DNA from: Candidatus Hodarchaeota archaeon
GTDB lineage: Archaea; Asgardarchaeota; Heimdallarchaeia; Hodarchaeales; Hodarchaeaceae
Reading direction: 5' to 3'
NCBI GenBank assembly: GCA_016840035.1
Contig: JAEOTC010000056.1
Location: 1 to 19,177 of the forward strand
Length of the DNA stretch: 19,177 nt
The position numbers and the translations under genes were made by a program. Of the stretch, positions 3-17,630 are shown piece after piece. Under the pieces are notes generated by a model. It saw nothing but the letters and a program-made list of their open reading frames with translations. It ran no database searches and was not told where the DNA came from. Each line of letters starts with the position of its first letter. Position 1 is the stretch's first letter.

Positions 3-281
3 GCTACTCATACTAACTTTGTTGAATCTACACGATTTGCCTTTGGCGCGTGGGTTGGTGATTCACAGGTTGATAATTTTGCTGTCTGGAATGAAGTTGT
101 CCCTCCTCTAACTGATCCGACTACTACTACGACTACTACTACTACTCTGGTCACTACGACCACAGATGACCCAGATTCGACTACCACAACGACTGCTGCT
201 GGTGGACCTGGCTTTGAGATAGAGCTCTTAGTTCTCAGTTTGTCTCTTCTCTTTGTCTTTTCTCGTAAGCGAAGACCCTAG
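3..281 (+). CDS. 5'-truncated secreted surface protein (C-terminal 92 aa), paralog of 7294..8202; ConA/LamG-like domain end, Thr linker and PGF-CTERM-like anchor
   Basis: Not in the ORF track. Manual translation from base 3 gives ATHTNFVESTRFAFGAWVGDSQVDNFAVWNEVVPPLTDPTTTT...AAGGPGFEIELLVLSLSLLFVFSRKRRP*, closely matching the C-terminus of 7294..8202 (FAFGSWVGDSQIDNFFVWDEVVPPLTD...AAGGPGFE...RKRRP). Confidence 0.9.
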   Translation, partial: ATHTNFVESTRFAFGAWVGDSQVDNFAVWNEVVPPLTDPTTTTTTTTTLVTTTTDDPDSTTTTTAAGGPGFEIELLVLSLSLLFVFSRKRRP

Positions 282-2211: not shown

Positions 2212-3636
2212 TTACTCCGCCTTTTTCTTTCTTCGATAAGTGATCCAGGTGGTTAAGCTTAGTGTCAAGATAATTATCCCTGCAAACGACGAGTCCTTAT
2301 CAGTTGTAGTTGGAAGCGTGCTGGTATCTGAGGTAGTGGTGGATGTTGATGTTATGGGGTCACTGATTTCATCGGCTTTAGGGAATTTACCCAGCCAAAA
2401 ATCACGGTATTCTGGACTACTGCCTCCATTTTCCACAGATGCCAGTGCTACTATGTCCATACTTGAGTCAGATCCCTCTATTAGAACCATATCAACGATT
2501 TTTTCTCCCCGAGTCACTTCCCCATAAGTAATGAATCCTAAGATGTCTCCGGTATCACTCACTCGCACAATGCACATATCACCTTTATCCTCGCTTCCAC
2601 TTATCGAACCATACGCTCCTCCGATATAGTACTCGCCTGAAGTACTTTGAAGACAAACGCTTGGGGTATCATAATTATTACTTCCAAAGGTTGTGTTCCA
2701 TTCCACATTTCCATTTGAATCACATTTTATTATCCAATAATCTTTTCCTATTCCGTATGTGTCTCCAAATGGGTAACACGTGAGCAAGAACCCGCCATCT
2801 GCAGTTTCTAGTATATTCCTCTCCCATGCCCCATACCAATCTGTACCATCATCATATGCTTGGTCCCAGACAATATTCCCATTTTCAGTAATTTTTATTA
2901 CCCATATCGAGAATGCGCTATTAGATTCGCTTGATTGCTTTGATAATCCACTCAATAGATAATTTCCATCATCTAAAGGAATTAAAGCGCTTGCCTGATC
3001 AGATCCTACTCTATGATATGTTTTATTCCATTCTTCGTTCCCATCTACGTCAGTTTTAATTAACCAATAATCCGTATTCCATGTTTCTCCAGGTAATGCA
3101 AATTCTGATTGAGTAGCTCCAGCCACCAGGAATCCTCCATCAGATGCTACTACAATTTGCGATCCGTAATCTGGCCCATCTTCTTTGCCATTATATGTTC
3201 GGTTCCATTCTTCTGTTCCATTTTCATCAATCTTGAGAATCCAGAGATCCCATGTGGAATACTCTGTGCCGAATCCGAACCCGTTTACTACATATCCTCC
3301 GTCAGATGTAGGAGCTACGCTTCGTATATGGCATTGAGGTTTTGTGGGATGGGAATAACTCTGATTCCACTCTTCTTTCCCCTCGGAATCGACTTTCAGT
3401 ATCCAAGAGGTTTGATCTGTACCCCCTATGAGATATGACCCTACAAGAATATACCCTCCATCCGAAGCACTCACTAATTGCATTGGTCTTTCCTCATTTG
3501 GAGTTTCATAAACTTCTTCCCATATAGGTGTGGCCTTTATATTCACATATCCACTATTAGAAGTTAATGCGATTACCATAAGGCTTAAACTACAGATAAA
3601 CATGCTTACCGTATATTTTCGTTTATTTTTCATCAA
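2212..3636 (-). CDS. Secreted beta-propeller repeat surface protein with C-terminal anchor
   Basis: Signal peptide. Repeats DGG[YF].V.G....D.W..K.D..G.EEWN.TY. T/S-rich linker, SSF motif, TM and RRKKK tail. GAGGTGA SD lies just upstream (ATG at 3633 or TTG at 3636). The 1-bp gap to the next gene suggests an operon with 474..2210. Confidence 0.85.
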   Translation of the reverse strand: MMKNKRKYTVSMFICSLSLMVIALTSNSGYVNIKATPIWEEVYETPNEERPMQLVSASDGGYILVGSYLIGGTDQTSWILKVDSEGKEEWNQSYSHPTKPQCHIRSVAPTSDGGYVVNGFGFGTEYSTWDLWILKIDENGTEEWNRTYNGKEDGPDYGSQIVVASDGGFLVAGATQSEFALPGETWNTDYWLIKTDVDGNEEWNKTYHRVGSDQASALIPLDDGNYLLSGLSKQSSESNSAFSIWVIKITENGNIVWDQAYDDGTDWYGAWERNILETADGGFLLTCYPFGDTYGIGKDYWIIKCDSNGNVEWNTTFGSNNYDTPSVCLQSTSGEYYIGGAYGSISGSEDKGDMCIVRVSDTGDILGFITYGEVTRGEKIVDMVLIEGSDSSMDIVALASVENGGSSPEYRDFWLGKFPKADEISDPITSTSTTTSDTSTLPTTTDKDSSFAGIIILTLSLTTWITYRRKKKAE

Positions 3637-3916: not shown

Positions 3917-4483
3917 TTATGGTTTCATTTTCCAAATCTTTAATGATTCATACATGAAAACCATGGTTCCAAATACGAGAACAAACAGAAAAACCCAGTT
4001 ACTTGGATCAAGGATATATCTATCTCCTCGTGTTAACAGAAAACCCAGAAATACAATTAGACAGAGAATAAACACCCCCAAATAGATTGTAAAACGAGGA
4101 ATCACGTGATATCCGAGACGAAAATAGAACCCATAGATTCCTGATTTGATTTCTTCTTTTACATAATACTTCTCATTTTCCTCATTTTTGGCTACAATTC
4201 CCACAGAAATCAAATTATTAATATGATACGAGACGAGGCCTGGAGAGGATAATTTCAATCCCTTTTGTATTTCCCTGATCCCTGCAAAACCTTCTGGATG
4301 AGTTAGAAGAAACCAATAAATGTTGAGTGTGGTTCCTTGAAGGAGTTTCTCTAGTTTTTCTTTAGGCGGGTCTGGGTGCATGGTTTCTCTCACGTATTTA
4401 AGAGAGTAGGATTTTGAGAGTAGGGGGATTTTTCGTTTTAAACGAGAGAGATTGATATTCTCTAATTCTTTAAAACGATCCAT
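3917..4483 (-). CDS. Membrane-tethered winged-HTH transcriptional regulator (wHTH + 2 TM), copy 1
   Basis: LQGTTLNIYWFLLTH...GIREIQKGLKLSSPGLVSYHINNLISVGIVAK...KY is a wHTH pattern, followed by two C-terminal hydrophobic helices. The start overlaps the SBP stop (TAATG). Paralogous to 9913..10437 and 17112..17630. Confidence 0.85.
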   Translation of the reverse strand: MDRFKELENINLSRLKRKIPLLSKSYSLKYVRETMHPDPPKEKLEKLLQGTTLNIYWFLLTHPEGFAGIREIQKGLKLSSPGLVSYHINNLISVGIVAKNEENEKYYVKEEIKSGIYGFYFRLGYHVIPRFTIYLGVFILCLIVFLGFLLTRGDRYILDPSNWVFLFVLVFGTMVFMYESLKIWKMKP

Positions 4484-6678
4484 TATTTTAGAATCCTCCC
4501 TCTAATATACTTTGCCTTCCTATAATTATAGATGACTATTGAAACCGCACAAACCACCAACCCACCAATCGCTATTGCGAAGAATGGGACCAATTTGTAC
4601 GTTTTGAGAAAATTTGGGATATTAAACTGGATTAAATTCCTCTTACCACTTAATTCCACTTCTAAATAGCGAAATGTCGAATTGCTAGCTTGAATTTTAA
4701 GCTCCTCCCATTCTCCCCTTTCCTCATTATAAAGAAAGAGAGCTAACTGATCATGAGGAATTTCATTGACTTCTTCAATATCATAATAGCATCTAAGCAG
4801 ATAGTTCTTATTTTCTTGATCACTTGTTGCTAATATGAACTTACCGTCTTCAATTTCAGAAGGTAGAAAGACCTTTAATTCCTTACTCATGGTTATATTC
4901 ACGTGATACTTCTGTTCCTGAAGAGGAGTTAGGACACAATCTGCCCATGGAAAATAAATGGGGTAGTCCGTAACCTCTATGTTATTATATTGGAACTTTT
5001 CAGGGTAAAGACTCTGTTTATGACTATTTGAAGCTTCTACTTGCTGTTGACTTAGTTTGAAGTTTCCTAATAGCTGATTATCTTGAGTGGAATAATTAAA
5101 GTAAATTTGTTCTATTGTATTCACGAATACAAATGGATTTAAGTCTTTGATTAGTGCATAAATATTCTTATTGAAAGTTAAATAGATATACGGGGCTTTT
5201 TGTTGAATTACTGGTTGAACTCGATAATAAAAATATTCTCGTTCTTGTCGTACGGGTGTTTTGGCTCCCTTTAATACTAATTCGTCAATAAGCGGTTCTT
5301 CAAATCCACCTGTATTAAAAGGGCTTGAAGAATGCAGATATAATCGAGTTAAGTCTGGATCATTGTACGAACTTGATCCAAAGAGAATAAGATCGTAGTC
5401 TCCCTCCCTCCAATATTCAGCCCAGTCGCTAGGGATGTTGGGTGGTGCCCAAATTCCTATTGCTTCTAAATATTCTTCAATAATCTCTGGGTGACGACTT
5501 TCGTCTCCTACTAAATTGAGAGCAAAGCGAAAGTTGTCTTTCCCACGTAGATAACCCGCCTTATCCAATAACTCATTTGCTAATGCCACATCAAACGGAT
5601 ACCCTGTCACCGACTGATTATAATATGGAACGTCTGGAGGGATTAAATTCGTCATTGGAATTGAAAAATCACTCCAGTTCATCTGATTTATGTATTCTTG
5701 CCTATCAATGGCATAATTAATGGCTAGTCGGACTCTGGGATCACTTAAATATTGATTATTGTGGTTAATATACATGAGTTCAAACCGAGTCATTTTTTCG
5801 CTAATATACACCTCCCAATTGATGCTATTTAACAACTGTTCCTCGATAGTGTTGTGCATAAAAACCATATCGACTGTTTGATCCCTAATCTCGTCAGCAA
5901 ATTCTTCCTGAGCAAGATAATGAATTTGTTCAAAAGGAGCCAATCCTTGATGGTAATTATTGAATCTAGTAAATGTAAAATTTTGAAAATTATCATTGTA
6001 AGTTGAGGAAGTTAATTCATATGGACCTGTGCCAATGGGATGTGAAATATTTGGTCCAATAAAGCTAGTTGGGGCTGCTATGTGCAGATATGCACACTCA
6101 TGAATAAAAGCAGCAAACGGGTCAGTTAAATGGACGGTAACTTGAAATTCGTTTTCTATTTCGACAAAATCAAAAGGTATTGTGTGAAAACTAATATATG
6201 GTGCTGGTTTGACATAGGCGGAATGAGTGGGATTAATCAGTCGATCATAATTCCATTTTACTGTACTCGCATTAAACTTTGACCCATCATGAAAAATAAT
6301 ATCATCCCGGAGATAAAATGTCCAGTGTTTACTGTCCTTGGATACGACCCATTGTTCAGCTAGCATAGGCTGTAATCCTCCAGAATAAGGATCATAATGC
6401 ACTAAAGCCTCATATACTAGTGAATTACGACGTAAATCAGCATTCCAACCTATTGCTATCGGATCAAAAAAAGGGTCATAAGGCCCGAGTATATATTTAG
6501 GTGTCATTACCCCAATTCGCAAAATGGAGGGAATTGAATCAACTGATTCTTGATTGAACAGAGGTATCTTTGACTTGGGTAAATCATTTGTCTCGAAATT
6601 ATCATAGGAGTTTCTGTTCGTAATCCATGAGGAAAATAGAATTAGGGACACGATTGTTACAATTAGCCTCATTTTCAA
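4483..6678 (-). CDS. Family-5 (peptide/nickel-type) solute-binding protein with an extra C-terminal beta-rich domain and single TM anchor; putative sensor 1
   Basis: SBP family-5 motifs: VYEALV, PMLAEQW, WTFYLRDDIIFHDGSKFNA, PIGTGPY, DPRVRLAINYAIDR, ANELLDKAGY. An extra domain of about 150 aa (LRCYYD...LALFLYNEERGEWEEL...YLEVEL) precedes the TM helix and basic tail. No permease or ATPase is adjacent. Confidence 0.85.
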   Translation of the reverse strand: MKMRLIVTIVSLILFSSWITNRNSYDNFETNDLPKSKIPLFNQESVDSIPSILRIGVMTPKYILGPYDPFFDPIAIGWNADLRRNSLVYEALVHYDPYSGGLQPMLAEQWVVSKDSKHWTFYLRDDIIFHDGSKFNASTVKWNYDRLINPTHSAYVKPAPYISFHTIPFDFVEIENEFQVTVHLTDPFAAFIHECAYLHIAAPTSFIGPNISHPIGTGPYELTSSTYNDNFQNFTFTRFNNYHQGLAPFEQIHYLAQEEFADEIRDQTVDMVFMHNTIEEQLLNSINWEVYISEKMTRFELMYINHNNQYLSDPRVRLAINYAIDRQEYINQMNWSDFSIPMTNLIPPDVPYYNQSVTGYPFDVALANELLDKAGYLRGKDNFRFALNLVGDESRHPEIIEEYLEAIGIWAPPNIPSDWAEYWREGDYDLILFGSSSYNDPDLTRLYLHSSSPFNTGGFEEPLIDELVLKGAKTPVRQEREYFYYRVQPVIQQKAPYIYLTFNKNIYALIKDLNPFVFVNTIEQIYFNYSTQDNQLLGNFKLSQQQVEASNSHKQSLYPEKFQYNNIEVTDYPIYFPWADCVLTPLQEQKYHVNITMSKELKVFLPSEIEDGKFILATSDQENKNYLLRCYYDIEEVNEIPHDQLALFLYNEERGEWEELKIQASNSTFRYLEVELSGKRNLIQFNIPNFLKTYKLVPFFAIAIGGLVVCAVSIVIYNYRKAKYIRGRILK

Positions 6679-6822
6679 GTTTCCAACTCCTCGAGATTTA
6701 TCTAGAATGGTTTATTATATTCAATCTTAGCTTTAATTCATTTTTAAACATGATAGAAATAATATGTTGGTTTATTGATAGCTTTGGAACGATTAAACTT
6801 ACTTATTCTCCCCAGAAAAGCA

Positions 6823-6867
6823 TATTTAAACCTTTCTAACCGTTCTAGATGTTCTAGATGTTAGAAC
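6823..6867 (-). promoter_or_regulatory. BRE-TATA promoter plus upstream GTTCT-N7-AGAAC operator for the SBP1-wHTH1 operon
   Basis: Minus strand reads AGAAAggTTTAAATA (TATA 6830-6823). The box GTTCT-AGATGTT-AGAAC is at 6851-6867, with its edge 21 bp from the TATA. Confidence 0.65.
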
Positions 6868-6972
6868 ATGCATTTTTCATTTCTTTTACAATCTCTATAA
6901 TCACATCCCTCTACCCCACGATCATCTCCAAGCTTCCATTTATTTTTTTTAAAAAGAACAAGCTCCAGTTTT

Positions 6973-7073
6973 TGAATAGCCTTTGCTCTTGCGATTTGTA
7001 TACAAAAAGAGCTTATTGTGAATGAGATTCTAAGCCGATTTTTTTCCTTCTGACGACAGTCTTCTGTAATTTC
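6973..7073. repeat. Dispersed direct repeat of about 100 bp, copy 2
   Basis: Homologous to 341-439 in the same orientation. Confidence 0.75.
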
Positions 7074-7178
7074 TTGTACTCTTGAAATCCTTGGATTCCT
7101 CCCATCCTTTCATTGTTTTTAGTTTTTCTGCCCTTCCTAATTGATCTTCTTCCCTTTCTTAGGGGTTTCATATCTGCC

Positions 7179-7222
7179 GTACAAATATTTGTACAACTAT
7201 TTTCCGAGGAAATGTTTAAATA
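7179..7222 (+). promoter_or_regulatory. Perfect palindrome GTACA-AATATT-TGTAC plus BRE-TATA for 7294..8202
   Basis: Box at 7179-7194, then GAGGAAAtgTTTAAATA with the TATA starting at 7215, 21 bp after the box edge. Confidence 0.7.
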
Positions 7223-7293
7223 ACCGTTTTTTCACCTTTTCTGCTTAGTTATCCAAGAATATTAACCCAACTTGGTTAAAGAGGTTTTTAAAA

Positions 7294-8202
7294 TTGATTG
7301 ATAACGGAATAAAGTTTTTTCGTGTATATTGCATCCTTCTTTTGGGTGTCATCTTTCTGTTTCCCCTTACGCAGGTGTCTGCTGAGGTGGTTTGGGTAGA
7401 GGATTGGGAAAACGGGTCTTCTGACTGGATTTTCCACAGTTATAACTATAGTGATGTTACTGGTTCCTGGTCTTTTCAACCTGATGCCATTGCTACACCT
7501 TCTGTGGCCAATGGAGTCTTTCAGACTAATTCTCCGAGTGATTTCTTTGGCGATTATTGGAGTGGCGCGATTCGAAATAGCACGACAGCGTATGGTTCCT
7601 GGAGTTTCGATGTGATTATTGGGTCAGGAGTCGCACATGAATCCTATCTTATTTTCTTCTTTGCTGTTGCTGGAATGCCTGATGATCTTACTGGATTATC
7701 TTTAGGTGATAACAATATTACAGGGTATTTCTTAGTAATTCAGTCAGGAGATAAAGGAGCTTTTGGTAATCCACTCATTCAGTTAGCGACCCTTAATTAC
7801 GTTTTGGCTGACTATCATCCTGCTACCCCGATTGAAGGAACACTTCATTTCCATATTACTCGGAATACCACAGGTTACTTTGAAGTCTTTTTTGATCCTA
7901 CGAATGACTCCTCGCCTCCTATTCTTACTGGTACTAATACTACTTTTACTACTTGTTCTAAATTTGCCTTTGGTTCCTGGGTTGGGGATTCGCAGATTGA
8001 TAATTTTTTTGTCTGGGATGAAGTCGTTCCCCCTCTAACTGATCTCCCTACAACTACTACGACTACTCCGATCACTACGACCACAGACAACCCAGAGTCG
8101 ACGACAACTACGACTGCTGCTGGGGGGCCTGGCTTTGAGCTACAAGTGTTAGTTCTTGGACTGTCCGCTCTATTCCTCTATCTTCGCAAACGAAGACCCT
8201 AG
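7294..8202 (+). CDS. Secreted surface protein, putative ConA/LamG-like beta-sandwich with Thr linker and PGF-CTERM-like anchor
   Basis: Signal peptide FPLTQVSA|EVVW. Family motifs AYGSWSFD, HITR...G.F.V.F and DS.IDN. Many N-x-S/T sequons. GGPGFE-TM-RKRRP C-terminus. The fold assignment is inference. Confidence 0.85.
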   Translation: MIDNGIKFFRVYCILLLGVIFLFPLTQVSAEVVWVEDWENGSSDWIFHSYNYSDVTGSWSFQPDAIATPSVANGVFQTNSPSDFFGDYWSGAIRNSTTAYGSWSFDVIIGSGVAHESYLIFFFAVAGMPDDLTGLSLGDNNITGYFLVIQSGDKGAFGNPLIQLATLNYVLADYHPATPIEGTLHFHITRNTTGYFEVFFDPTNDSSPPILTGTNTTFTTCSKFAFGSWVGDSQIDNFFVWDEVVPPLTDLPTTTTTTPITTTTDNPESTTTTTAAGGPGFELQVLVLGLSALFLYLRKRRP

Positions 8203-8224
8203 GTCTTCCCACTCCCATTTTTTT
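8192..8224 (+). terminator. Stop-overlapping hairpin plus T tract
   Basis: GAAGACC-CTA-GGTCTTC followed by a C/T tract. Confidence 0.5.
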
Positions 8225-8269
8225 GGATGATTGGGGATGAAATTTTACTCGTCTACTCTAATGAACAGG

Positions 8270-8289
8270 GTGTACAGTCCGCTGTACAC
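8270..8289. promoter_or_regulatory. Palindromic box GTACA-GTCCGC-TGTAC upstream of SBP2
   Basis: GTGTACAG-TCCG-CTGTACAC, core 8272-8287, with the same half-sites and N6 spacer as 7179 and 14750. The TATA box here is unclear (possibly ATATAGA at 8321). Confidence 0.6.
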
Positions 8290-8347
8290 CAAAACACCCA
8301 AAAACTGATCCAAGAACACGATATAGAGTCTCATTTACGAATAAACC

Positions 8348-9916
8348 ATGGTTTACAGCATGTTTCGGGAATTAAAAACATCTTCAAGGTGTATCCAGAG
8401 TTATTTTCTCTTTTTCTTGTTTTTTACTCTAGTTCTTGTTCCTGCCGTGAGGGGTCTCTCCTTAAATTCTAGGGGTGGTGCTGAGTCTTCCAGTATTTCA
8501 TTTGTTGTGATTGAACCTCTTGGTTCTCATCCAGCTTTTCAACAGCTCATTACTCAATTTAACCAGCACCCTGATTTTGACTTTACTGTTGAGGTTGAGT
8601 TACTTGAGGGAAGTAACAAGGATTGGTATGACCAATTAGTTCACCGATTTTTAGCTCAAGACAGTTCTTTTGATCTTGTCTCGACTGACATTATCTGGAT
8701 TCCTGATTTTGCCTTTGAAGAGTTTTTAACCCCTTTGGATGATATTCTGCCTCCTAAGGAGCAGAATTACTTTCTTACTCCCCCCATTGAAGCTTCCATT
8801 TACGATGGTCACATCTATGCGGTTCCTTGGTTTCATGCTTCTGGTCTTTTCTTTTATCGTACTGACATTCTCGAATATGCGGCTTCTATTGGTTTAATCC
8901 CTGCTAATCGTCCTCCCTCGACTTGGGATGAGTTATATGATTGGACACTTATCATGCTTGCCAACCAAACCCTTGTTGATCAGTTTAAGAGTTCTGATGG
9001 AGTTTTAGAGGGATTTATCTGGCAAGCTTCTTCTGGAGAAGATTTGATGTGTAATTTTTTGGAATTTCTTGGTGGGACGGGTATCTTCTCCTTTCTTTCT
9101 GAAGAACAATCTTTTGCTCTATTAGATTCTCCTCCAATCCAAGAAGTTCTTTCTTTCATGAAAAGCCTCATCACTAGCGGTATTTCTCCAGAGGAGGTTC
9201 TTACTTATTGGTCTGGTTCCAGTGGTGATATCTGGTTAGCAGGGAATGCGATTTTTCATCGCAATTGGCCATATTATTATTCATTCAGTTATGATTCTCC
9301 GAATTTACTGAACCTTACAACTTCGGAACCAGTTTTTGCTGTGACTACTATGCCTCATAAAGTGGGCACCTCTTCTCCTCGTACTTCCACCCTTGGTGGT
9401 TGGCAGCTTGGTCTTAATCGCTATTCCTTGTATCCTGAAAAGACCAAACAATTTATGACCTGGCTTACGTCATCCGACCAGCAGAAGGTTTTTCTTCTTT
9501 CTGGCGGTTTTCTTCCTTCGCGTCTTTCTCTTTATTCTGATCTGGATATTGCTTCTAGTGATTATGCTTATATTCAGGATTTTTTACCTATCTTTCAAAC
9601 CGCCATTTCGCGTCCCCGTCCGACTCATCCTCGCTATTCCGAAATGAGTGTGGTCCTTCAATCTCAAATCCATCAATTCCTTTCTGGGACCACTTCGTAT
9701 GAGCAATTCGCTCTCACCAGTAATGGGGAAATAGATCTTATCCTGAAGCAGTTTGAACTGGATTTATTGGCCAAATTGGAGGAATTGAGTCGCAAGACCT
9801 TTCATCTTCTTCCTCTCATCGCCTTAATCTCTGTTGGGGTAGGCCTTCCGGTTATCAGGGTAATCGTTCAGAATTTTCGCACTTATCGATCATTAAGGAG
9901 GCAACTCAAGCTATGA
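8348..9916 (+). CDS. Sugar-type (trehalose/maltose-binding-like) solute-binding protein with C-terminal TM anchor; putative sensor 2
   Basis: Motifs FDLVSTDIIWIPDFA, YDGHIYAVPWF..GLFFYRTDIL, PPSTWDEL, IFHRNWPY, STLGGWQLGLN and RPTHPRYSEMS are typical of cluster-B/D sugar SBPs. N-terminal signal and C-terminal TM. ATGA overlap with the next gene. The start may be ATG 8360. Confidence 0.85.
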   Translation: MVYSMFRELKTSSRCIQSYFLFFLFFTLVLVPAVRGLSLNSRGGAESSSISFVVIEPLGSHPAFQQLITQFNQHPDFDFTVEVELLEGSNKDWYDQLVHRFLAQDSSFDLVSTDIIWIPDFAFEEFLTPLDDILPPKEQNYFLTPPIEASIYDGHIYAVPWFHASGLFFYRTDILEYAASIGLIPANRPPSTWDELYDWTLIMLANQTLVDQFKSSDGVLEGFIWQASSGEDLMCNFLEFLGGTGIFSFLSEEQSFALLDSPPIQEVLSFMKSLITSGISPEEVLTYWSGSSGDIWLAGNAIFHRNWPYYYSFSYDSPNLLNLTTSEPVFAVTTMPHKVGTSSPRTSTLGGWQLGLNRYSLYPEKTKQFMTWLTSSDQQKVFLLSGGFLPSRLSLYSDLDIASSDYAYIQDFLPIFQTAISRPRPTHPRYSEMSVVLQSQIHQFLSGTTSYEQFALTSNGEIDLILKQFELDLLAKLEELSRKTFHLLPLIALISVGVGLPVIRVIVQNFRTYRSLRRQLKL

Positions 9917-10437
9917 AATCTATTTATACTCTTCTTCTTGAGCTCTTTGACTATTTTATTCCTTCGAGTCATACTCCGTTGGATCGCCCTATGAATGAAG
10001 ATTTAATTCGGGGGAAATCTCTCCAAATCTACTGGCACTTGCTGACCGCGGGTCCTAAAGGAGTTCGTGAAATTCAACGAGATCTTAATCTCACTTCTCC
10101 CTCTTCTGTCTCCTTTCAACTTGATCGATTGATGAAAGCGGGTATTGTTTCGAAAGATGAGAGTACTGACAAATATTTTGTGTCTGAAGAGGTTAAAACT
10201 GGTATCTTGGGTTTCTATGTCCGTTTCGGTTATCGCATGATTCCCCGTCTTACCCTGTTTCTTCTCTTTCAGTTGACTGGTATTGTCGTTTTTCTCATTC
10301 TTTTCCTTCTTGAGGGAGATCAATTTGCTTTAAATCCCTTTAACCTTCTTGCTTTCATCTATTTAATTCTTAGTAGTCTGTGGTTAATGTATGAGTCTAC
10401 TAAAATCAATAAACTAAAACCTAAAGAACTAAAATGA
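9913..10437 (+). CDS. Membrane-tethered winged-HTH transcriptional regulator (wHTH + 2 TM), copy 2
   Basis: IRGKSLQIYWHLLT..GVREIQRDLNLTSPSSVSFQLDRLMKAGIVSK..KY, linker GILGFYVRFGYRMIPR, then 2 TM. 4-nt overlap with SBP2. Confidence 0.85.
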   Translation: MKSIYTLLLELFDYFIPSSHTPLDRPMNEDLIRGKSLQIYWHLLTAGPKGVREIQRDLNLTSPSSVSFQLDRLMKAGIVSKDESTDKYFVSEEVKTGILGFYVRFGYRMIPRLTLFLLFQLTGIVVFLILFLLEGDQFALNPFNLLAFIYLILSSLWLMYESTKINKLKPKELK

Positions 10438-10476
10438 TAGAATAAACATAATTAAATGAAATGAGAGTATTACAAG

Positions 10477-11349
10477 ATGTTTGAGAATTTATTACTTAAC
10501 TGTCGTCTTCAGACCCTTCTTTTTTTGGGTATGATGCTTTTGTTTCCCCTCACGCAGGTATCTGCTGAGGTGGTTTGGGAAGAGGATTTTAATTCTGGAA
10601 TCTCAGAGAAATTGACATTCTTCGCATGGACCAGTGATAATGGCATTTTTCGTACAAATACTACCGCGCAACCCACTGTCGAAAATGCTGCTCTTCAAAT
10701 GCCTAATAATCGTGTTGCGAGTACTTGGAGTGGTGCTCAGCGGAACACGACTTTAGCTTATGGTTCCTGGAGTTTTGATTATACTGTAAAAGAAGGTGAA
10801 GATCATACTTCGTGTGATACGATTTTTTTCGTCAGTAATTTTCCATGGGATCTTGATGGACGTCCACTTCTTCCTAGCAACTTGAATGCATACTATATTG
10901 CGATTAAATCGGGGTCTACTGATAATTGCTGGCCGGATGAACCGGATCATGGATTAAACTTCGGACGAATATATCAAGGAAATGCTGTTAACTTAGTAAA
11001 ATATGTGTTTCCTGCTGACCTTGTGGGATCCTACAACATAGATATTTTAAGAAAACCGAATGGAGAATTTAATATCTATTGGGACTCTGAATTAATCATT
11101 AACAAAACTGACATTCTTGTTACATCAGCTGAAGTGTTTGTAGTTGGTTCTTGGACTGGAGATTCTACTTTTGACAACTTTGTTGTTGAAGAGTTTACCG
11201 ATACAACTTCAGATGGTTTACCAACTGATTCAGATAGTTCAACGAGTGCAGATGATCCATCGACTACTGATTCAAGCTCAGATTTTAATGTGGACTTATT
11301 ATTCCTAGCTCTCATTGCGGTTATGGTAGTTACCAAGAAACGTAAATAG
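10477..11349 (+). CDS. Secreted surface protein, divergent paralog of 7294..8202
   Basis: FPLTQVSAEVVWEEDF, AYGSWSFD, GSWTGDSTFDN. Acidic S/T linker, SDF motif, TM and KKRK tail. Confidence 0.85.
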   Translation: MFENLLLNCRLQTLLFLGMMLLFPLTQVSAEVVWEEDFNSGISEKLTFFAWTSDNGIFRTNTTAQPTVENAALQMPNNRVASTWSGAQRNTTLAYGSWSFDYTVKEGEDHTSCDTIFFVSNFPWDLDGRPLLPSNLNAYYIAIKSGSTDNCWPDEPDHGLNFGRIYQGNAVNLVKYVFPADLVGSYNIDILRKPNGEFNIYWDSELIINKTDILVTSAEVFVVGSWTGDSTFDNFVVEEFTDTTSDGLPTDSDSSTSADDPSTTDSSSDFNVDLLFLALIAVMVVTKKRK

Positions 11350-11357
11350 TTAAGCTT

Positions 11358-11404
11358 GAAGGAGTAACTTTGTAAATGGAATATTACTCCTTCGTCCTTT
11401 TTTT
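11358..11404 (+). terminator. Hairpin plus T tract; distant variant of the GAAAGAGT..ACTTCTTTC repeat
   Basis: GAAGGAGTAA-N16-TTACTCCTTC (11358-11393) followed by T7, just after the stop codon. Confidence 0.55.
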
Positions 11405-11574
11405 ATCTTGTTTTCTCATCAGGCACTTAAATGAGCAAGTATACACTCAACCTGAGCTGTTTAATGAGATTAGTTAATTTTCGTTGTTTCCTTGATTTTT
11501 TACACATCATTCTCTATTTAGAGAATGCTATCGCTCTTTAAGTCCCTGAGTTTCCTTCATACATTTCGTAAATT

Positions 11575-12462
11575 TTGAGGTTACTGAACATGTCTAACAA
11601 AGTACTTACTAACCTTCGCCTACCTTTCGTTCTGATTTTAGGTATCATGGTATTGTTTCCCCTCACGCAGGTCTCTGCCGAGGTGGTTTGGGAAGAGGAC
11701 TGGGAAAAACCCCCTTTTGATGAATGGATAATTCAAGCGTATTCTTATAGTGGTGATACTGGTTTTCAACCCGATGCTGCTGCCAATCCCCCCGTTGTTG
11801 CTGGTGTATTTGAAACCAATGCTCCTTCCGATATTTTTGGTGATTATTGGAGTGGTGCAGTCCGTAATAGTTCTGTGGCGTATGGTTCTTGGAGTTTTGA
11901 CTGGATAGTTGGTTCTGGGTCGGTTCATGAATCATATGTCAATGTCTTCTTCATTTTACCCGAGTACCAAAATAATCTAACAGGAAGAGATATGAGTGGT
12001 AATTATTCAGGGTATATGCTGAATCTTCAATCAGGTGTGAAAGGTCCTCATCCTCATAACTCGATTTATCTATCACGTTTTGATGGAGGAATAATTGGCA
12101 TGACAGCTTTTGATTCTGCTATCGAAGGATCTCATCACATTGAAGTGACTCGGTTCGAAGATGGAGAGTTCAATGTTTACTTCGACCATAATTCTACTCC
12201 AATCATTACTGGAATTGATACTACACACACGAACTCTACTAAATTTGCCTTTGGTGCGTGGATTGGCGATTCAGGTATAGATAATATTGTTGTTGCAGAT
12301 CTGACTGAAACAACGACTACTACAACTTCTACGACTACTACCGATGATACTACTACTGATTCTCCTACAACAACTGAGACTGGAAGTCCAAGCTTTGAAT
12401 TTCAGGTGATAGTACTTGGAGTGGCGTTCCTTTTCATCTTTTCCCGCAAGCGAAGACTCTAG
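11575..12462 (+). CDS. Secreted surface protein, close paralog of 7294..8202 (probable start ATG 11590)
   Basis: FPLTQVSAEVVWEEDWE, SDIFGDYWSGAVRNSSVAYGSWSFD, KFAFGAWIGDSGIDN. Thr linker and GSPSFE-TM-RKRRL C-terminus. Confidence 0.85.
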   Translation: MRLLNMSNKVLTNLRLPFVLILGIMVLFPLTQVSAEVVWEEDWEKPPFDEWIIQAYSYSGDTGFQPDAAANPPVVAGVFETNAPSDIFGDYWSGAVRNSSVAYGSWSFDWIVGSGSVHESYVNVFFILPEYQNNLTGRDMSGNYSGYMLNLQSGVKGPHPHNSIYLSRFDGGIIGMTAFDSAIEGSHHIEVTRFEDGEFNVYFDHNSTPIITGIDTTHTNSTKFAFGAWIGDSGIDNIVVADLTETTTTTTSTTTTDDTTTDSPTTTETGSPSFEFQVIVLGVAFLFIFSRKRRL

Positions 12463-12490
12463 GTCTTCTTTTTTACCTTTTTTTCCTTCC
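12452..12490 (+). terminator. Stop-overlapping hairpin plus T tracts
   Basis: GAAGAC-TCTAG-GTCTTC followed by long T runs. Confidence 0.55.
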
Positions 12491-12520
12491 TTATGGTTAT
12501 TATCCATTTTCGTGTAGTTA

Positions 12521-12559
12521 GAAAGAGTGACGCATTCCTGAGGGGGCGTTACTTCTTTC
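12521..12559. repeat. Intergenic hairpin repeat, copy A
   Basis: GAAAGAGTGACGC-ATTCCTGAGGGG-GCGTTACTTCTTTC, homologous to 17643-17680 and 18839-18878. Confidence 0.65.
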
Positions 12560-12837
12560 TTTCCTTCTGATTCAGTTTCTTGCCAATCGATTTTTTTCTT
12601 CAACTGGGGAGTATTACTCTCAATGGTTATGGTTTTCTCATCTCGCAAGAAGTGGGATTGCTGGTCCTAACAACTTATTTCATCAGTTTGTTTGCATTTG
12701 CATTTTATAAATTTAAATTTAAGAAACAGAAGGAGACATACCGTTGATGAATCTAAGAAATAAAATTCTAATTTCTTCTTTGTCCTATTTTGTTTCCACA
12801 TTGTCTGAGAAGTATCGTTCTTTGAGGTTTTAGGTCA

Positions 12838-13926
12838 TTATATTTTCCGTCTTTTCCGCGAGGAGATTATTAGTATACTAAGCACTAGTGGTACACTCAT
12901 CATTTCGAATCCTGGTATTCCACTTCCAGGTATAACGATTGTCAAGATCATTGTATCTAATACCGTGGTGGCATTTTTCAGTTGAATACTGATATCATAT
13001 GTTCCTGACTTAACCGATGCCTCTGTTCGAATTTTCAATGGTATTTCGTCTGTTTCATCCTTGAAAATATTCTTGATCAAGGACGAACCAAATGGTTCTA
13101 CTGTGATTCCACTTGGTTGAGTTCCGATGACTACAGTTCCATATCCTGTGGCTTCTCCTTCATTTTTTACCGTTATTGTGACGGTTGCTATTTCTTCTTT
13201 CCCTACTTCTTTGAGCATGCTTCTCTCTGTAAACTGTAGATTGGCTCGTTCTAGGGATGGTGGTTTGATTATTACCTCATTATTTACAGTAATGTTATCT
13301 AACCCGTGTCCTCCTTGTGAATCAAATCCAAAATAGTTTCCTACTGTATATTCAGTATCCATTGCTTCTATTATCAAAGTTCCATCCACGTACACATTAA
13401 AATGGCCATTTAGATCTCTTGTTATATCTATGTACAAATATTCAGGCAGTTTTCCAGTATATCCCCATACTCCCAATACTTTTGACGGAAATCCTTCTCG
13501 ACTTCCTAATATTAAGCTACTTGGGGTTACCATCCAACTTGAATCTGGAATTAATGTTAGATAATACCCTTTTTCTTCCCCAAGGTTTCCAAATGCTTCT
13601 GTACAGAAGTAAACGTACATATGTTCTCCGCTTATTAGTCCAGTTTGATTTATGTATACATCAAAGCTCCATGTGCCGTATGCAATATTACTGTCATGTT
13701 TTAGTCTGTGGTGATCTGTTTTTTCTCCTGCCGCAATTAACAATCCTGTTGTAGCGGAATAATTTCCGTCTATTATGGTCCATCCATCGTAATTCCCGTC
13801 CTCGAAATCATCACTCCAGATTTCTGTAGCAATACTTGGAGATGCTTGCAGAACGATTAAAATTAGGAAAATAAAACTTCCAGAAGTTAAATTTTTAGAT
13901 ATTTTTTCTTTTCTCATCTGATTCAT
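12838..13926 (-). CDS. Secreted surface protein: distant member of the same ConA/LamG-like family plus a C-terminal Ig-like domain and PGF-CTERM-like anchor
   Basis: EIWSDDFEDG, AYGTWSFD, IDITRDLNGHFNVYVDG and LDNITV match the family motifs. An Ig-like segment follows (VTITVKNEG...PSGITV...SGTYDISI), then IPGFE-TM-RKRRKI. GGTGA SD upstream. Confidence 0.85.
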   Translation of the reverse strand: MNQMRKEKISKNLTSGSFIFLILIVLQASPSIATEIWSDDFEDGNYDGWTIIDGNYSATTGLLIAAGEKTDHHRLKHDSNIAYGTWSFDVYINQTGLISGEHMYVYFCTEAFGNLGEEKGYYLTLIPDSSWMVTPSSLILGSREGFPSKVLGVWGYTGKLPEYLYIDITRDLNGHFNVYVDGTLIIEAMDTEYTVGNYFGFDSQGGHGLDNITVNNEVIIKPPSLERANLQFTERSMLKEVGKEEIATVTITVKNEGEATGYGTVVIGTQPSGITVEPFGSSLIKNIFKDETDEIPLKIRTEASVKSGTYDISIQLKNATTVLDTMILTIVIPGSGIPGFEMMSVPLVLSILIISSRKRRKI

Positions 13927-14096
13927 CTTTCACCCACCTAATCTGAGACCATGCTCATAGCGTTTTCCCCTATATTAACTTATAGTTCTATCTGTCTTCT
14001 CACCAAATTGGATAATTAACTCAAGAAAACACACATGACCGTATTAATAAAAGAAAATGAACTCCTTCCCTCATATTTAGGAATTTGTTGTGGCTT

Positions 14097-14285
14097 CTAC
14101 TGTTTTTTTCGCTTTCTCCGCTTTCTACTGAAGATTCCAACTCCGAAGACGATAATAAGTAGTTCTACAAAGGCAGTACTATCATCAGTTATGTTCGGTG
14201 ATGTTTCTGTAATTCTAGTTGTTGTTTTAGTCGTTGTGGTAGTTGTTATGGTAGTTGGTGGAGTAGTGGTAGTTGTCTCATTCAC
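14097..14285 (-). pseudogene. Orphan C-terminal fragment of a surface protein (Thr linker, TAF motif, TM, basic tail)
   Basis: Encodes only TTTTTPPTT...DDSTAFVELLIIVFGVGIFSRKRRKRKKQ. No signal peptide or globular domain. The upstream frame is closed by a stop about 25 codons earlier, with no ATG. Confidence 0.55.
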
Positions 14286-14360
14286 CTCTTTCTTAGCCGT
14301 ACTGAGTATTAAAAAGACAATATTTCGATAAAGTAGTGATGAGTCTCCCTCCTTTCCATT

Positions 14361-14483
14361 TTATTTCTTCTTTTTCACTTTTGGTCCGAGTGGGTACGAA
14401 TAAACGAGTCGATTATCGATTTCCTCTTTGGTTTTTTTCTTTTTTTTCTCGTCCTTGTTCTTTGGTTTTTGGTCTTCACTCAT
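14361..14483 (-). CDS. Small Lys-rich protein, copy 1 (40 aa: MSEDQKPKNKDEKKKKKTKEEIDNRLVYSYPLGPKVKKKK)
   Basis: Below the ORF-track cutoff. ATG preceded by a GTGAT SD-like motif. The paralog at 18566..18685 has an identical 15-aa core encoded with only synonymous differences. Confidence 0.75.
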   Translation of the reverse strand: MSEDQKPKNKDEKKKKKTKEEIDNRLVYSYPLGPKVKKKK

Positions 14484-14749
14484 GTTAATCACAGACTCTT
14501 CCTAGACTTTCTTGAGTTGTGTCTTGTATGTTTATTTATTAATTCAATGCTAAGGTTTGCAAAGTCATTTCTTTTAGACGTGTCTAACACTATTAAACTT
14601 TGAGGAACTAAAATTTTACTTCTTCTTTTTTCCAATTAAAATATATAGTCGTGTCTAATTCTTATCGGCCTGCCTATTATTTATTCAAGGAGGATTGAAG
14701 TATTTGCTTTAGTGTAAAAAGATCAAGTACTAAAACTCTGTTATTCGTT

Positions 14750-14813
14750 GTACAAACTTTTGTACAGTGAGTACAAGGTTTTATACTTCCCCTACCGTGG
14801 AAACCTTTAAGTA
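14750..14813 (+). promoter_or_regulatory. Tandem GTACA-N6-T[GA]TAC boxes plus BRE-TATA for SBP3-wHTH3
   Basis: GTACA-AACTTT-TGTAC at 14750-14765 and GTACA-AGGTTT-TATAC at 14771-14786 (21-bp period). GGAAAccTTTAAGTA has its TATA at 14806, 20 bp after the proximal box. Confidence 0.65.
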
Positions 14814-14889
14814 AGGGGAAATTCCTATCTATTTGAAAGGTTTCACTCGAATTAATTAGAAAAAATCCTGTTAGAGAGCTGTTAAACGT

Positions 14890-17055
14890 ATGAAACTCCG
14901 ATATTATCATGTTTTCTTACTAATCAGCATTTTTATCCTTACAGGTATCTTTATTCCTGTTTCAACCCATACAGTATCTTCATTCTCCTCAATTGTACAT
15001 ACTGATATTGTAAATACCCCTACTAATGGAGCAGAGGATTCTTCCTTACGCATCCTCTCCTATGGTTATCGTAATAGTGACCCTTTCCAAGAATTTAACG
15101 ATCTTGCCTCTTATTCTTATCTTATTACACTTGTATTTGATTCTCTTGTTCATTATTCTTTTGAAACGAATGAAATAATCCCCTCTCTTGCCAGATCTTG
15201 GCTTGTGAGTTTAGATAGCCGTCACTGGACTTTCTTCCTTCGGCAAGATGTTTTATTTCATGATGGTTCTGAATTTAACGCTTCAGCTGTCAAATTTTCT
15301 TATGATCGACTTATTGATCCTTCCCATCCTGCTTATATTGATCCGACACACAGAACACTTCTCTTTCAAGGCCCTCTTGAATCCGTGACTGTAGTAGACA
15401 CGTATATTGTGTCTTTTCACTTTTCTGAACCCTATGCTTCATTTTTGTATACAGACGCAGCCACAATGAGTATATATTCTCCTAGAAGTTTTATAGGTTC
15501 GAATATTTCTACTCCTATTGGTACAGGTCCTTATGCATATGCGTTTCATCAATCCAGAGAAAATGATACATTGCTCCACCTTACAAGAAATCCAGATTAT
15601 CATTTAGGCTACCCTCCTTTTGAGAACGTTTCCTATCGGACTTTTAATGAGACAGAACAGAGTTGGTTTTCTTATGAAGAGGCAATACACAACCGAGAAG
15701 GAGACTTGGCAACTTACCCCATTTCTAGTCTTCCAGATACGGATGAGTATTGGGATCTTTCTCTTTCTTTTCATGGTATTGAGGTAGGTTACTTTAACCA
15801 TTCTAATCCCTATTTGTCCAATTCTTTAGTGCGTTCAGCCATCAACTATGGCATCGATAAGGTTGATTTCTGCACTACTTTTCCCAATAGTACTATTCGT
15901 TACTCTAGATCTTCTCTTAAGAGCATCATCCATTCTGATATCGATTTTCACGATTCAACTATTCCAGGATATCCCTTTGATCCGCAATACGCAAACTTCT
16001 TACTTGATGCAGCAGGTTATCCACGAAACACTGATGGATATCGTTTCAGTCTTCAGCTCTCGGGAGACGATTATAGATGGGATAAACTGATTTATATTCA
16101 GGATCAGCTCCGAGATATTGGAATCAATTCGACAATAGATATTTTGGACCATAATGATTTCTCAACGGGCCTGTTTCCTTTTGATCTTTATATAGTGGGG
16201 TGGGGTGGACTGATGGATCCAAGTTATGTCTGGTGGTTTCTTCATTCAGATGGTGATATCAATGTTGGGGGTTTTCATAATTCTACTATTGATCAACTCG
16301 TTCTAAATGGGCAATATACTCCTGTCGTACAAGAACGTGAGTATTACTACAAGAAACTCCAGTGGTTAGTACAAGATGCTGTACCTTACTTATTACTGAG
16401 TGAGGGATATAAACCCTACATAAGGGCTACTTCTGTTTCATCATTGGTTAAAATGAATATTATTGGGAAATTTGCATTTAATTTTCCAACTGTCCAAGAT
16501 CCTCTATTTTCTCTCTCCGAAATTCCTCTTTCTGTCAACCCTCTCTATTGTCCACAAGCAGACATTGTGATCTCTCCCGAATCAGTTATTCACGATTCTT
16601 ATGTTAATCTCGATTTTTCAACTGATTCATCTCAGTTCTTCCCAGATCAAATAGGGGCGGGAAAATTTTACCAGCTTTCGAATGATGATCAGGAACCAGT
16701 GGAGTATTCTCTCCGTTTCTATTATGATGAAAGCGATTTTAATGAGAGTATTGATCCTGAGTCGCTAGCTCTCTTTGTTTGGAACCCAGTTCAACAATCT
16801 TGGGATGAACTAGAGTTAATTTCTGTAGATAATGATTTTCGCTATCTTGAGGTTCAGTTAACTCTTTCTACTGATCCTCTCATTCTTGCTTTTGGCGTAA
16901 GAAAGGTGTTTTTGGAGGAAGTTATTCGCTCCTTTAAACTTCTTTTTCCTTATCTTATATTACTGGGGGGAATTATTTCATTTGGTGCTGCAATTATCTT
17001 ACTTAATAGAATGTTCTTGAAAAATCTTCAGGAGGAGTTTTTATCACAATTATAA
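14890..17055 (+). CDS. Family-5 solute-binding protein with an extra C-terminal domain and single TM anchor; putative sensor 3 (paralog of 4483..6678)
   Basis: VFDSLVHY, PSLARSW, WTFFLRQDVLFHDGSEFNA, PIGTGPY, VRSAINYGIDK, ANFLLDAAGY and TPVVQEREYYY. Same extra domain as SBP1 (LRFYYDE...LALFVWNP...WDEL...FRYLEVQL), followed by a TM helix. Confidence 0.85.
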   Translation: MKLRYYHVFLLISIFILTGIFIPVSTHTVSSFSSIVHTDIVNTPTNGAEDSSLRILSYGYRNSDPFQEFNDLASYSYLITLVFDSLVHYSFETNEIIPSLARSWLVSLDSRHWTFFLRQDVLFHDGSEFNASAVKFSYDRLIDPSHPAYIDPTHRTLLFQGPLESVTVVDTYIVSFHFSEPYASFLYTDAATMSIYSPRSFIGSNISTPIGTGPYAYAFHQSRENDTLLHLTRNPDYHLGYPPFENVSYRTFNETEQSWFSYEEAIHNREGDLATYPISSLPDTDEYWDLSLSFHGIEVGYFNHSNPYLSNSLVRSAINYGIDKVDFCTTFPNSTIRYSRSSLKSIIHSDIDFHDSTIPGYPFDPQYANFLLDAAGYPRNTDGYRFSLQLSGDDYRWDKLIYIQDQLRDIGINSTIDILDHNDFSTGLFPFDLYIVGWGGLMDPSYVWWFLHSDGDINVGGFHNSTIDQLVLNGQYTPVVQEREYYYKKLQWLVQDAVPYLLLSEGYKPYIRATSVSSLVKMNIIGKFAFNFPTVQDPLFSLSEIPLSVNPLYCPQADIVISPESVIHDSYVNLDFSTDSSQFFPDQIGAGKFYQLSNDDQEPVEYSLRFYYDESDFNESIDPESLALFVWNPVQQSWDELELISVDNDFRYLEVQLTLSTDPLILAFGVRKVFLEEVIRSFKLLFPYLILLGGIISFGAAIILLNRMFLKNLQEEFLSQL

Positions 17056-17111
17056 TTAAGGATCCTTCCCATGAGATTGCGGAGGTTAAAGCTTCCGAGG
17101 ATTCCGAAACG

Positions 17112-17630
17112 ATGACTGAACGAAAATCGCTTGTTTCTCGGTTTTTTTCTACCCTTCGTCTTCGTATTAAATCGATTGGTATATCCCAGACTCCCATCGA
17201 CAAAGAAATTTTACAGGGAAAAACTATTCAAGTTTACTGGTTCCTTCTTACTCATGAAGATGCTAGCATTCGTGAAATTCAGCGTGCTTTACATTATGCG
17301 TCACCAGGGACTGTTACTTATCAACTTTCTAAGTTAGAAACAGCTGGTGTTGTGACTAAAGATCTTGAAAATGATAAGTATCGGATCAAATCAGAAATTA
17401 AATCAGGAATCTTGGGTTTTTATGTCCGGATTGGTTATCGAATGATTCCTCGGTTTTCTTTATACCTTATTTTGTTCCTTTTTGGGATTATTTGCTTCGC
17501 TTTTGTGGCAATTGATCGTGGTGACACCTTTATTTCGGATCCTTTCAATTGGATCATCCTATTTATTTTGATCTCGGGTATTTTTGCCTTTATCTTTGAA
17601 TCCATCCGTATTTGGAGAATGAGACCATAG
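17112..17630 (+). CDS. Membrane-tethered winged-HTH transcriptional regulator (wHTH + 2 TM), copy 3
   Basis: LQGKTIQVYWFLLTH..SIREIQRALHYASPGTVTYQLSKLETAGVVTK..KY, linker EIKSGILGFYVRIGYRMIPRF, then 2 TM. Lies 56 bp after SBP3. Confidence 0.85.
   Translation: MTERKSLVSRFFSTLRLRIKSIGISQTPIDKEILQGKTIQVYWFLLTHEDASIREIQRALHYASPGTVTYQLSKLETAGVVTKDLENDKYRIKSEIKSGILGFYVRIGYRMIPRFSLYLILFLFGIICFAFVAIDRGDTFISDPFNWIILFILISGIFAFIFESIRIWRMRP

Follow-up and report, generated by a model that had tools for sequence, protein, structure and literature searches.

Paired solute-binding proteins and membrane-embedded winged-helix regulators in Asgard archaea: a candidate kinase-free receptor and transcription activator

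In the bacterial pairs ToxR/ToxS, TcpP/TcpH, VtrA/VtrC, and CadC/LysP, a membrane-tethered DNA-binding domain acts without a phosphorelay, and a separate, co-encoded partner modulates the signal. ToxR-like regulators combine an OmpR/PhoB-type winged helix-turn-helix (wHTH) domain with a single transmembrane helix (TM) and their own periplasmic domain, and their partners are not solute-binding proteins (SBPs). In archaea, the membrane-bound one-component activators ArnR and ArnR1 of Sulfolobus acidocaldarius bind boxes upstream of their target promoter and regulate surface structures (PMC6396743), and a survey of transmembrane transcription regulators (TTRs) found such proteins to be common in archaea (Demey et al. 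2023, PMC10269533). The text of that survey makes no mention of Asgard archaea or of solute-binding partners and does not describe the cassette, operator, and fusions reported below. Here, we analyze a stretch of DNA from a Hodarchaeota genome (contig JAEOTC010000056.1 of assembly GCA_016840035.1; “the window,” 19,177 bases, ~38% GC) whose six module open reading frames (ORFs) form three pairs (Table 1), each consisting of a secreted SBP with a C-terminal TM and a wHTH protein with two TMs (wHTH-2TM). We propose that each pair could be a split, kinase-free transmembrane receptor and transcription activator in which the SBP passes a ligand signal to the regulator via a C-terminal cassette, a reading that we consider somewhat likelier to be true than false.

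The case begins with the pairing itself. An earlier note on this DNA had described three SBP-TM/wHTH-2TM pairs, and all three are recovered by ORF calling, Pfam, AlphaFold2 (AF2) models, and paralogue alignment. Two of the pairs overlap, as that note had also said and as can be read directly at the junctions: the stop codon of SBP5a overlaps the start codon of regulator a (TAATG), SBP1 and regulator b overlap by ATGA, and SBP5b and regulator c are separated by a gap of 56 nucleotides (nt). The source genome (4.3 Mb, 293 contigs, 87% complete) has nine matches to the regulator family and five SBP plus wHTH-2TM pairs, i.e., the three in the window and two more, on contigs C28 and C284, in which an SBP5-TM gene lies directly 5' of the regulator (on C28, with an overlap of 4 nt). 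Another copy, on C191, is truncated by the contig end, and divergent copies on C277 and C104 stand without an upstream SBP.

The same arrangement recurs well beyond this genome. For comparison, 60 loci were fetched from relatives and 40 related genomes were searched for the regulator family, which occurs in 20 of the 21 genomes of the genus, usually in multiple copies. The neighborhood survey that the earlier note had proposed came out in favor of enrichment for SBPs: all 25 of the closest regulator homologues, from 20 related genomes, directly follow an SBP5-TM gene whose product has N- and C-terminal hydrophobic segments, and the junctions are mostly -4, -1, or +2 nt. An SBP5 and regulator pair is also found in another Asgard family (L103, L110), and in independently annotated metagenome-assembled genomes (MAGs) labeled Thorarchaeota and Odinarchaeota an SBP_bac_5 gene overlaps the regulator by 4 nt. 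Pairwise distances among the SBPs and among the regulators are correlated (23 pairs, r = 0.84, Mantel 0/5000), and thus both genes have been inherited as a unit. The pairing of SBP and regulator is far beyond chance.

Among the window ORFs, Pfam and genome searches found no permease, ABC ATPase, kinase, or receiver, so the window contains neither an ABC importer operon nor a two-component system; the earlier note's claim that permease, ATPase, histidine kinase, and response regulator are all missing therefore stands. Permease-like or ABC-ATPase-like ORFs are likewise missing from the 60 fetched loci and from contigs C282 and C284, and C28 gave no permease or ATPase match in searches, though an 891-amino-acid (aa), possibly FtsX-type permease-like ORF lies ~6 kb from its module. 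Canonical SBP5-permease operons do exist in the same genome (contigs C86, C227, C98, C238, and C2), and the transporter-linked SBP5 proteins carry at their C termini a Thr-rich linker followed by a PGF/Heimdall-CTERM-like anchor; the module SBP5s have instead an extra beta-sandwich, a TM, and a tail of 10-18 residues. In total, synteny, overlapping codons, co-divergence, the lack of a local transporter, and the TM cassette described below support the view that SBP and wHTH-2TM form one conserved functional unit.

The input side of this unit varies while the regulator family is constant, as had been claimed: by Pfam, two of the window SBPs are of the SBP_bac_5 type (SBP5a and SBP5b) and one is of the SBP_bac_1 type (SBP1), and their regulators are paralogues of one another, 41-50% identical. 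All three SBPs have an N-terminal signal-like hydrophobic segment and a C-terminal hydrophobic helix followed by a short charged tail. In the AF2 model of SBP5b (predicted local distance difference test score [pLDDT], 84), an SBP5 fold is joined to a beta-sandwich at residues 540-670 and a TM helix at 685-718, and the nearest structures found by Foldseek are NikZ, DppA, and NikA (E 8e-36, TM-score 0.8 on target) and GsiB; as modeled, the SBP fold itself is ordinary. Family 5 membership rests on Pfam and Foldseek together, and the FHDG and PIGTGPY motifs are invariant among the 25 module SBP5 proteins. The module SBPs also give weak matches to SgrR.

SBP1 has a history of its own. Most of its homologues in relatives are canonical transport proteins accompanied by permeases, the closest of them having a PGF-like anchor and standing beside permeases and a TrmB-like regulator, and we therefore rejected the idea that the SBP1 module is itself a conserved pair. 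Given that SBP1 has the cassette while its relatives have the PGF-like anchor and permeases, the module looks, by sequence comparison, like a local ectodomain swap in which SBP1 was grafted onto the cassette. Beside the closest SBP1 homologue (46% identical, PGF-like anchor), a divergently transcribed gene (L095:3031-3504, + strand) encodes a 157-aa protein with an N-terminal HTH-like part, a TM, and an RRLKP end as in the window regulators; it falls below the threshold of the family hidden Markov model.

The cassette is the element that unrelated partners have in common. It consists of an outer-boundary motif, [T/S][F/L]x[Y/L]xP, a TM of exactly 20 residues, an invariant Asn, basic residues, and a short tail, which often has an acidic E-E/D-[FL]-D/E motif near its end. 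The last ~40 residues of the SBP5, SBP1, NosD, and SBBP partners align despite their unrelated ectodomains, with the spacing from Pro to Asn fixed. Curated sorting signals (PGF-, Heimdall-, and Loki-CTERM) gave no significant NCBIfam match for 17 cassettes, the best being a Loki-CTERM match at E 0.07.

All three regulators fit the definition of a TTR, i.e., a DNA-binding domain with at least one TM, on the combined evidence of wHTH matches, AF2, and Foldseek. Their Pfam matches are weak and of the ArsR, TrmB, MarR, and LexA wHTH types. The AF2 model of regulator c (pLDDT 90.6) has an N-terminal helix, the wHTH at residues 37-92, a beta-hairpin at 104-113, and TMs at 114-136 and 144-169, and Foldseek aligned its wHTH part alone with the DNA-binding domains of CadC, CzrA, MarR, and LexA, returning no solved membrane-tethered homologue of the whole protein. 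The two TMs are joined by the loop GD-x-[FY]-x-x-[DN]-P-x-N, which is present in all three regulators in the alignment; together with the modeled TM hairpin, this fits the suggestion that the loop is the outside part of the regulator. An invariant IPR precedes TM1, and the loop/TM boundaries hold helix-breaking Gly, Asp, and Pro residues. The regulators have no Trans_reg_C match, two TMs, a loop of ~10 residues, and no ectodomain, which sets them apart from ToxR-like proteins, and in the AF2 model ~20 residues (the beta-hairpin) separate the wHTH from TM1, with no HAMP or sensor domain, which sets them apart from the ArnR type. We also considered the GD-x-F outside loop as a feature specific to regulators with SBP partners, and we rejected this idea; NosD-fused regulators carry the loop too.

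A conserved cis-element accompanies the pairs. We derived a 16-bp palindrome, GTWC-N8-GWAC, from inverted repeats before SBP5b and from k-mers compared among 27 regions upstream of SBP genes. Of 48 operons, 28 have it between -250 and +60 relative to their first gene, typically at -75 to -140; as background in the source genome, it occurs in 1.1% of upstream regions and in 1.3% of windows drawn at random. Four later-fetched loci that were left out of discovery all have it. A third half-site follows 4-5 nt downstream, and a B recognition element (BRE)/TATA-like GAAAnnTTTAAAT lies ~25-45 nt further; BRE/TATA-related 7-mers are enriched across loci. This placement is that of an archaeal upstream activating site, and a palindrome upstream of BRE/TATA fits what might be expected of an autoregulating activator. 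The inner bases vary by paralogue group (e.g., GTACAAACTTTTGTAC, GTTCTAAAGTTAGTAC, GTACTAACGTTAGTAC, and GTTCAAAAAGACGAAC), and an exact 10-mer search across the window intergenic regions found no shared operator. The window has four palindromes against 0.6 expected: one each before SBP1 and SBP5b, one before gene 7294, and a fourth, at 16369, that falls within the coding region of SBP5b. The site before SBP5b is identical in the orthologous loci L031 and L034.

Which other genes might the regulators control? The earlier note had proposed the flanking surface-protein genes, and this part of its model is only partially borne out. Gene 7294 has an operator upstream and is a candidate target; a relaxed search, allowing one core mismatch, found no convincing operator before surface genes 10477, 11575, 12838(-), 17795, and 2212(-). 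The proposal that the targets include every flanking surface gene is not supported, given that 7294 is the only one preceded by an operator. Elsewhere, extra palindromes lie just 3' of the regulator and before the next gene in 7 of 45 loci, and a palindrome at C28:42518 precedes the gene for a secreted 169-aa protein. At C273:7280, GTACAAATATCTGTAC is a near-copy of the perfect palindrome at 7179, with no ORF of at least 100 aa starting within 400 nt.

The regulator family is larger than its SBP-linked branch. It comprises 575 clusters at E <= 1e-10 in a library of 1.8 billion proteins, and of 201 genomes sampled from the phylum, 120 carry it, often as multiple copies. Distant members follow genes for DUF3160 proteins, NosD beta-helix proteins, SBBP or Kelch propellers, or small secreted proteins without a Pfam match, and some partners are fused to the regulator. 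The partnership is thus not specific to SBPs, as had been supposed, and the module should be generalized from “SBP plus regulator” to a cassette-bearing ectodomain plus a wHTH-2TM regulator. In one fusion of 955 aa (L103:5552-8419), a signal and NosD beta-helix are followed by one TM, the wHTH, and two TMs, and further NosD-TM-wHTH-2TM fusions are on record (P0158, 953 aa; P0157 and P0190, both partial). Residues 788-951 of P0158 are 46% identical to regulator c, the GD-x-F loop included. These fusions fix the topology, with the ectodomain outside and the wHTH inside, and they are the classical sign of split partners that work together. The cassette motifs are degenerate in the fusion protein, as would be expected if a covalent link replaces a contact.

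How might such a pair carry a signal? The most economical reading would be that ligand sensing by the SBP is relayed through the cassette to the TM hairpin of the regulator. The first gene supplies an SBP5 or SBP1 ectodomain outside the cell, held in the membrane by its dedicated C-terminal cassette; the second supplies a TM hairpin that exposes ~10 residues on the outside and is joined by a beta-hairpin to an ArsR/MarR-like wHTH in the cytoplasm. Both proteins are probably made from one mRNA. We posit that the SBP and regulator would associate in the membrane via the cassette and the TM hairpin, and ligand-induced closure of the SBP may then reach the regulator by way of the cassette. Acting as a dimer or higher-order oligomer, the regulator would bind GTWC-N8-GWAC and the third half-site upstream of BRE/TATA, and, judging from the position and conservation of these sites, we infer that it would activate the operon that encodes it and a small number of further promoters, e.g., that of 7294.

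We also entertain a broader version of this proposal, more tentatively and as falling a little short of an even chance. That is, the module may represent a phylum-wide Asgard “plug-in receptor” system, with interchangeable ectodomains, a common cassette that docks on a wHTH-2TM activator, paralogue-specific operators, and small surface-protein regulons. Such a split or fused, type-I-receptor-like transcription factor would read the outside without kinases or second messengers. Environmental sensing in Asgard archaea is almost uncharted; if the proposal is correct, the field would gain a modular device built of a binding domain, a TM cassette, and a membrane-bound activator, in which SBPs have been re-used as receptors by exchange of their anchor and which would be an archaeal, kinase-free counterpart of bacterial ToxR/ToxS and CBP/ChiS. 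The system offers several experimental handles, namely, a 16-bp operator, the invariant Asn of a defined cassette, modules that occur in nature both fused and split, and soluble SBP domains for ligand screens.

Several observations weigh against the proposed receptor. The loci from related genomes are not independent of one another, so the enrichment statistics overstate the case. In the DUF3160-linked and small-secreted-linked subfamilies the partner has no C-terminal TM, and therefore TM-to-TM coupling is not the mechanism of the whole family. The tails of SBP5a and SBP1 are basic, without the acidic EE[FL]D-like motif common elsewhere. Several Opp/Dpp-type permease sets in the genome could provide docking for an orphan SBP. 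Finally, the strict palindrome is missing within 250 nt in 20 of 48 operons and in the SBP5a operon.

The explanation closest to ours changes the signal alone. In this alternative, the regulator senses the amount, insertion, or folding of the co-encoded exported protein, as part of surface-protein homeostasis, and the SBP binds, scavenges, or adheres on its own account. The great diversity of partners, several of them non-classical as ligand sensors, would be well explained in this way, as would the observations that the regulator gene always comes last and that the operator lies at the operon's own promoter. We nevertheless regard homeostasis as unlikely, if worth serious attention: the SBP fold and signature motifs are kept across 25 proteins, which suggests selection on the binding site, the fusions resemble classical receptors, and most steps are common to both models in any case. 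A more conventional account would treat the SBPs as ordinary transport proteins serving distant ABC permeases and the wHTH-2TM protein as the operon's transcription factor, one that responds to some other cue, much like TrmB for the sugar ABC operons of archaea. Permease sharing by orphan SBPs is a known phenomenon, SBP5-type permease sets number at least five in the genome, and the canonical SBP1 operons of relatives do place a TrmB-like regulator beside the SBP. Set against this, the module SBPs do not have the PGF/Heimdall-CTERM anchor found on all of the genome's transporter-linked SBP5s, the cassette is common to non-SBP partners, partner-regulator fusions exist, the SBP5 module loci, more than 25 in number, are all devoid of permeases, and the one-to-one pairs co-diverge; we thus find the transport account quite improbable.

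Two further ideas concern the membrane segments. An intramembrane protease might cut within or before TM1 and free a soluble wHTH, a route made conceivable by the helix-breaking residues at the loop/TM boundaries (GD..DP.N) and the invariant IPR, and TcpP and CadC are under regulated proteolysis in bacteria according to two reports (PMC11323476, PMC11484849). No protease gene is conserved in the neighborhoods examined, however, and the precedents ArnR and ChiS act from the membrane, such that proteolytic release as the main explanation seems very unlikely; it would also be compatible with our model as a downstream step. Alternatively, the cassette could be a sorting or processing signal for an archaeosortase-like enzyme, with the adjacent regulator mechanistically unrelated. 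The layout is indeed CTERM-like (a short Pro motif, a TM, and basic residues), and two members have very weak Loki-CTERM matches (E 0.07), but, in contrast to known CTERM signals, the tail extends 10-18 residues past the basic cluster and often has the acidic motif, none of the curated sorting models matches, and the cassette goes one-to-one with the regulator gene and is degenerate in fused proteins. We give this last idea scant credence.

Table 1. Features of the 19,177-base window, in window coordinates
Feature	Position	Strand	Description
SBP5a	4483-6678	-	731 aa; Pfam SBP_bac_5 E 3e-61; extra beta domain; C-terminal TM
SBP5a cassette	4483-4608	-	TYKLVP, 20-residue TM, Asn, basic tail (alignment)
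Regulator a	3917-4483	-	188 aa; weak HTH_20 match; paralogue alignment
SBP1	8348-9916	+	522 aa, sugar-type; Pfam SBP_bac_1 E 3e-22, SBP_bac_8 E 1e-15; C-terminal TM
SBP1 cassette	9791-9916	+	TFHLLP, 20-residue TM, Asn, basic tail; same as SBP5 partners (alignment)
Regulator b	9913-10437	+	174 aa; Pfam, paralogue alignment
SBP5b	14890-17055	+	721 aa; Pfam SBP_bac_5 E 5e-53; C-terminal TM
SBP5b cassette	16927-17055	+	SFKLLFP, TM, invariant Asn706, tail QEEFLSQL (alignment)
Regulator c	17112-17630	+	172 aa; Pfam, paralogue alignment, AF2 model, Foldseek
Palindrome GTACAAATATTTGTAC	7179-7194		Perfect 16 bp; 115 nt before gene 7294, ~500 nt before SBP5a; then BRE/TATA-like GGAAATGTTTAAAT
Palindrome GTACAGTCCGCTGTAC	8272-8287		76 nt before SBP1 start
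Palindrome GTACAAACTTTTGTAC and third half-site GTACAA 5 nt downstream	14750-14776		140 nt before SBP5b
BRE/TATA-like GAAACCTTTAAGTA	14800-14813	+	Between palindrome and SBP5b start
Surface protein gene 7294, candidate target	7294-8202	+	Thr-rich linker, PGF/Heimdall-CTERM-like anchor; weak NCBIfam Heimdall-CTERM match; operator upstream
Surface paralogue (partial)	3-281		Paralogue of 7294
Surface paralogue	10477-11349		Paralogue of 7294
Surface paralogue	11575-12462		Paralogue of 7294
Surface paralogue	12838-13926	-	Paralogue of 7294
Anchored surface protein	474-2210	-	SBBP beta-propeller repeats, E 8e-14
Anchored surface protein	2212-3636	-	Adjacent to the preceding
Short ORF	14097-14285	-	62 aa; Thr-rich stretch and CTERM-type anchor (TM + RKRRKRKK) only

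The five paralogous surface proteins, gene 7294 included, share an N-terminal FPLTQVSAEVVWEEDWE, a jelly-roll-like body without a Pfam match, a Thr-rich linker, and a PGF/Heimdall-CTERM-like anchor, and the 62-aa ORF at 14097 could represent either a remnant or an anchored peptide of minimal size. SBBP propellers, like that of the first of the two adjacent anchored proteins, serve as regulator partners in another Asgard family.

The wider family also includes arrangements that differ from the one described here. In one set of loci (L055, L056, L058, L059, L061-L063, L071, L072, L084, and L118), the regulator follows a secreted DUF3160 protein of ~730 aa that has no C-terminal TM; the gap is 40-190 nt, the outside loop of the regulators differs, and the loci mostly have an operator variant, GTTC-N8-GAAC, the strict motif being missing in L071, L072, and L084. 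In another Asgard family (L109, L112, L113, L115, L116, and L117), a four-TM regulator variant of 229-261 aa has an extra N-terminal TM hairpin and no co-directional upstream partner and mostly adjoins genes for multi-TM membrane proteins; its own palindrome lies ~80-110 nt upstream in five of these six loci, and none was found in L109. A 33%-identical homologue outside the Asgard phylum, in a MAG labeled Nitrososphaerota (L093), is followed rather than preceded by the gene for a 650-aa protein with an N-terminal TM. In the source genome, the divergent 147-aa member at C277:1571-2626 lies directly 3' of a gene for an Arf/Rab-like small GTPase and not of an exported-protein gene. The MAGs that carry related loci are labeled Heimdallarchaeota and Hodarchaeota, the sequencing runs listed as containing the locus are all of marine-sediment DNA, with no RNA run among them, and public records name members of the family “hypothetical” or “winged helix-turn-helix domain-containing protein.”

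How does the module compare with what has been described? In the literature searched, we found no description of an Asgard SBP/wHTH-2TM module, and to that extent the earlier note's claim of novelty stands; membrane-bound regulators as such are not new to archaea, given ArnR and the TTR survey (PMC10269533). The module resembles the ToxR-like pairs in its tethered DNA-binding domain and its separate, co-encoded partner, and it differs from them in its ArsR/MarR-like wHTH, TM hairpin, ~10-residue loop, and lack of a regulator ectodomain. ArnR and ArnR1 share with our regulators an N-terminal HTH and two C-terminal TMs; compared by architecture, ArnR differs in that a HAMP-like domain and a sensor domain separate its HTH from its TMs (PMC6396743) and in having no co-encoded ectodomain partner. 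In E. coli SgrR, a wHTH and an SBP5-type domain are combined in one cytoplasmic protein, and TrmB of Thermococcales, a wHTH protein, acts as local regulator for an SBP operon in archaea; both are soluble and sense inside the cell, whereas the module's SBP is outside and its regulator is membrane embedded.

Two other systems come nearer in logic. In Vibrio cholerae, the periplasmic binding protein CBP remains attached to ChiS, a membrane-embedded regulator that binds promoter DNA from the membrane, and controls it. CBP is itself an SBP5-type protein. ChiS belongs to the hybrid histidine kinases and combines a large periplasmic domain with a cryptic HTH, and CBP is soluble and also serves a transporter; the module has no kinase or receiver and no linked transporter, and its SBP is itself anchored by a TM. 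BceS-type intramembrane-sensing kinases have two TMs and a very short outside loop and depend on the accessory transporter BceAB. In both cases, a signaling protein with a short loop would borrow an accessory membrane protein; for BceS, the accessory is an ABC transporter and the output is a kinase and response regulator, while for the module the accessory would be an anchored ectodomain and direct DNA binding is the proposed output. By analogy, then, the module seems most like CBP/ChiS and the intramembrane-sensing kinases with a borrowed sensor.

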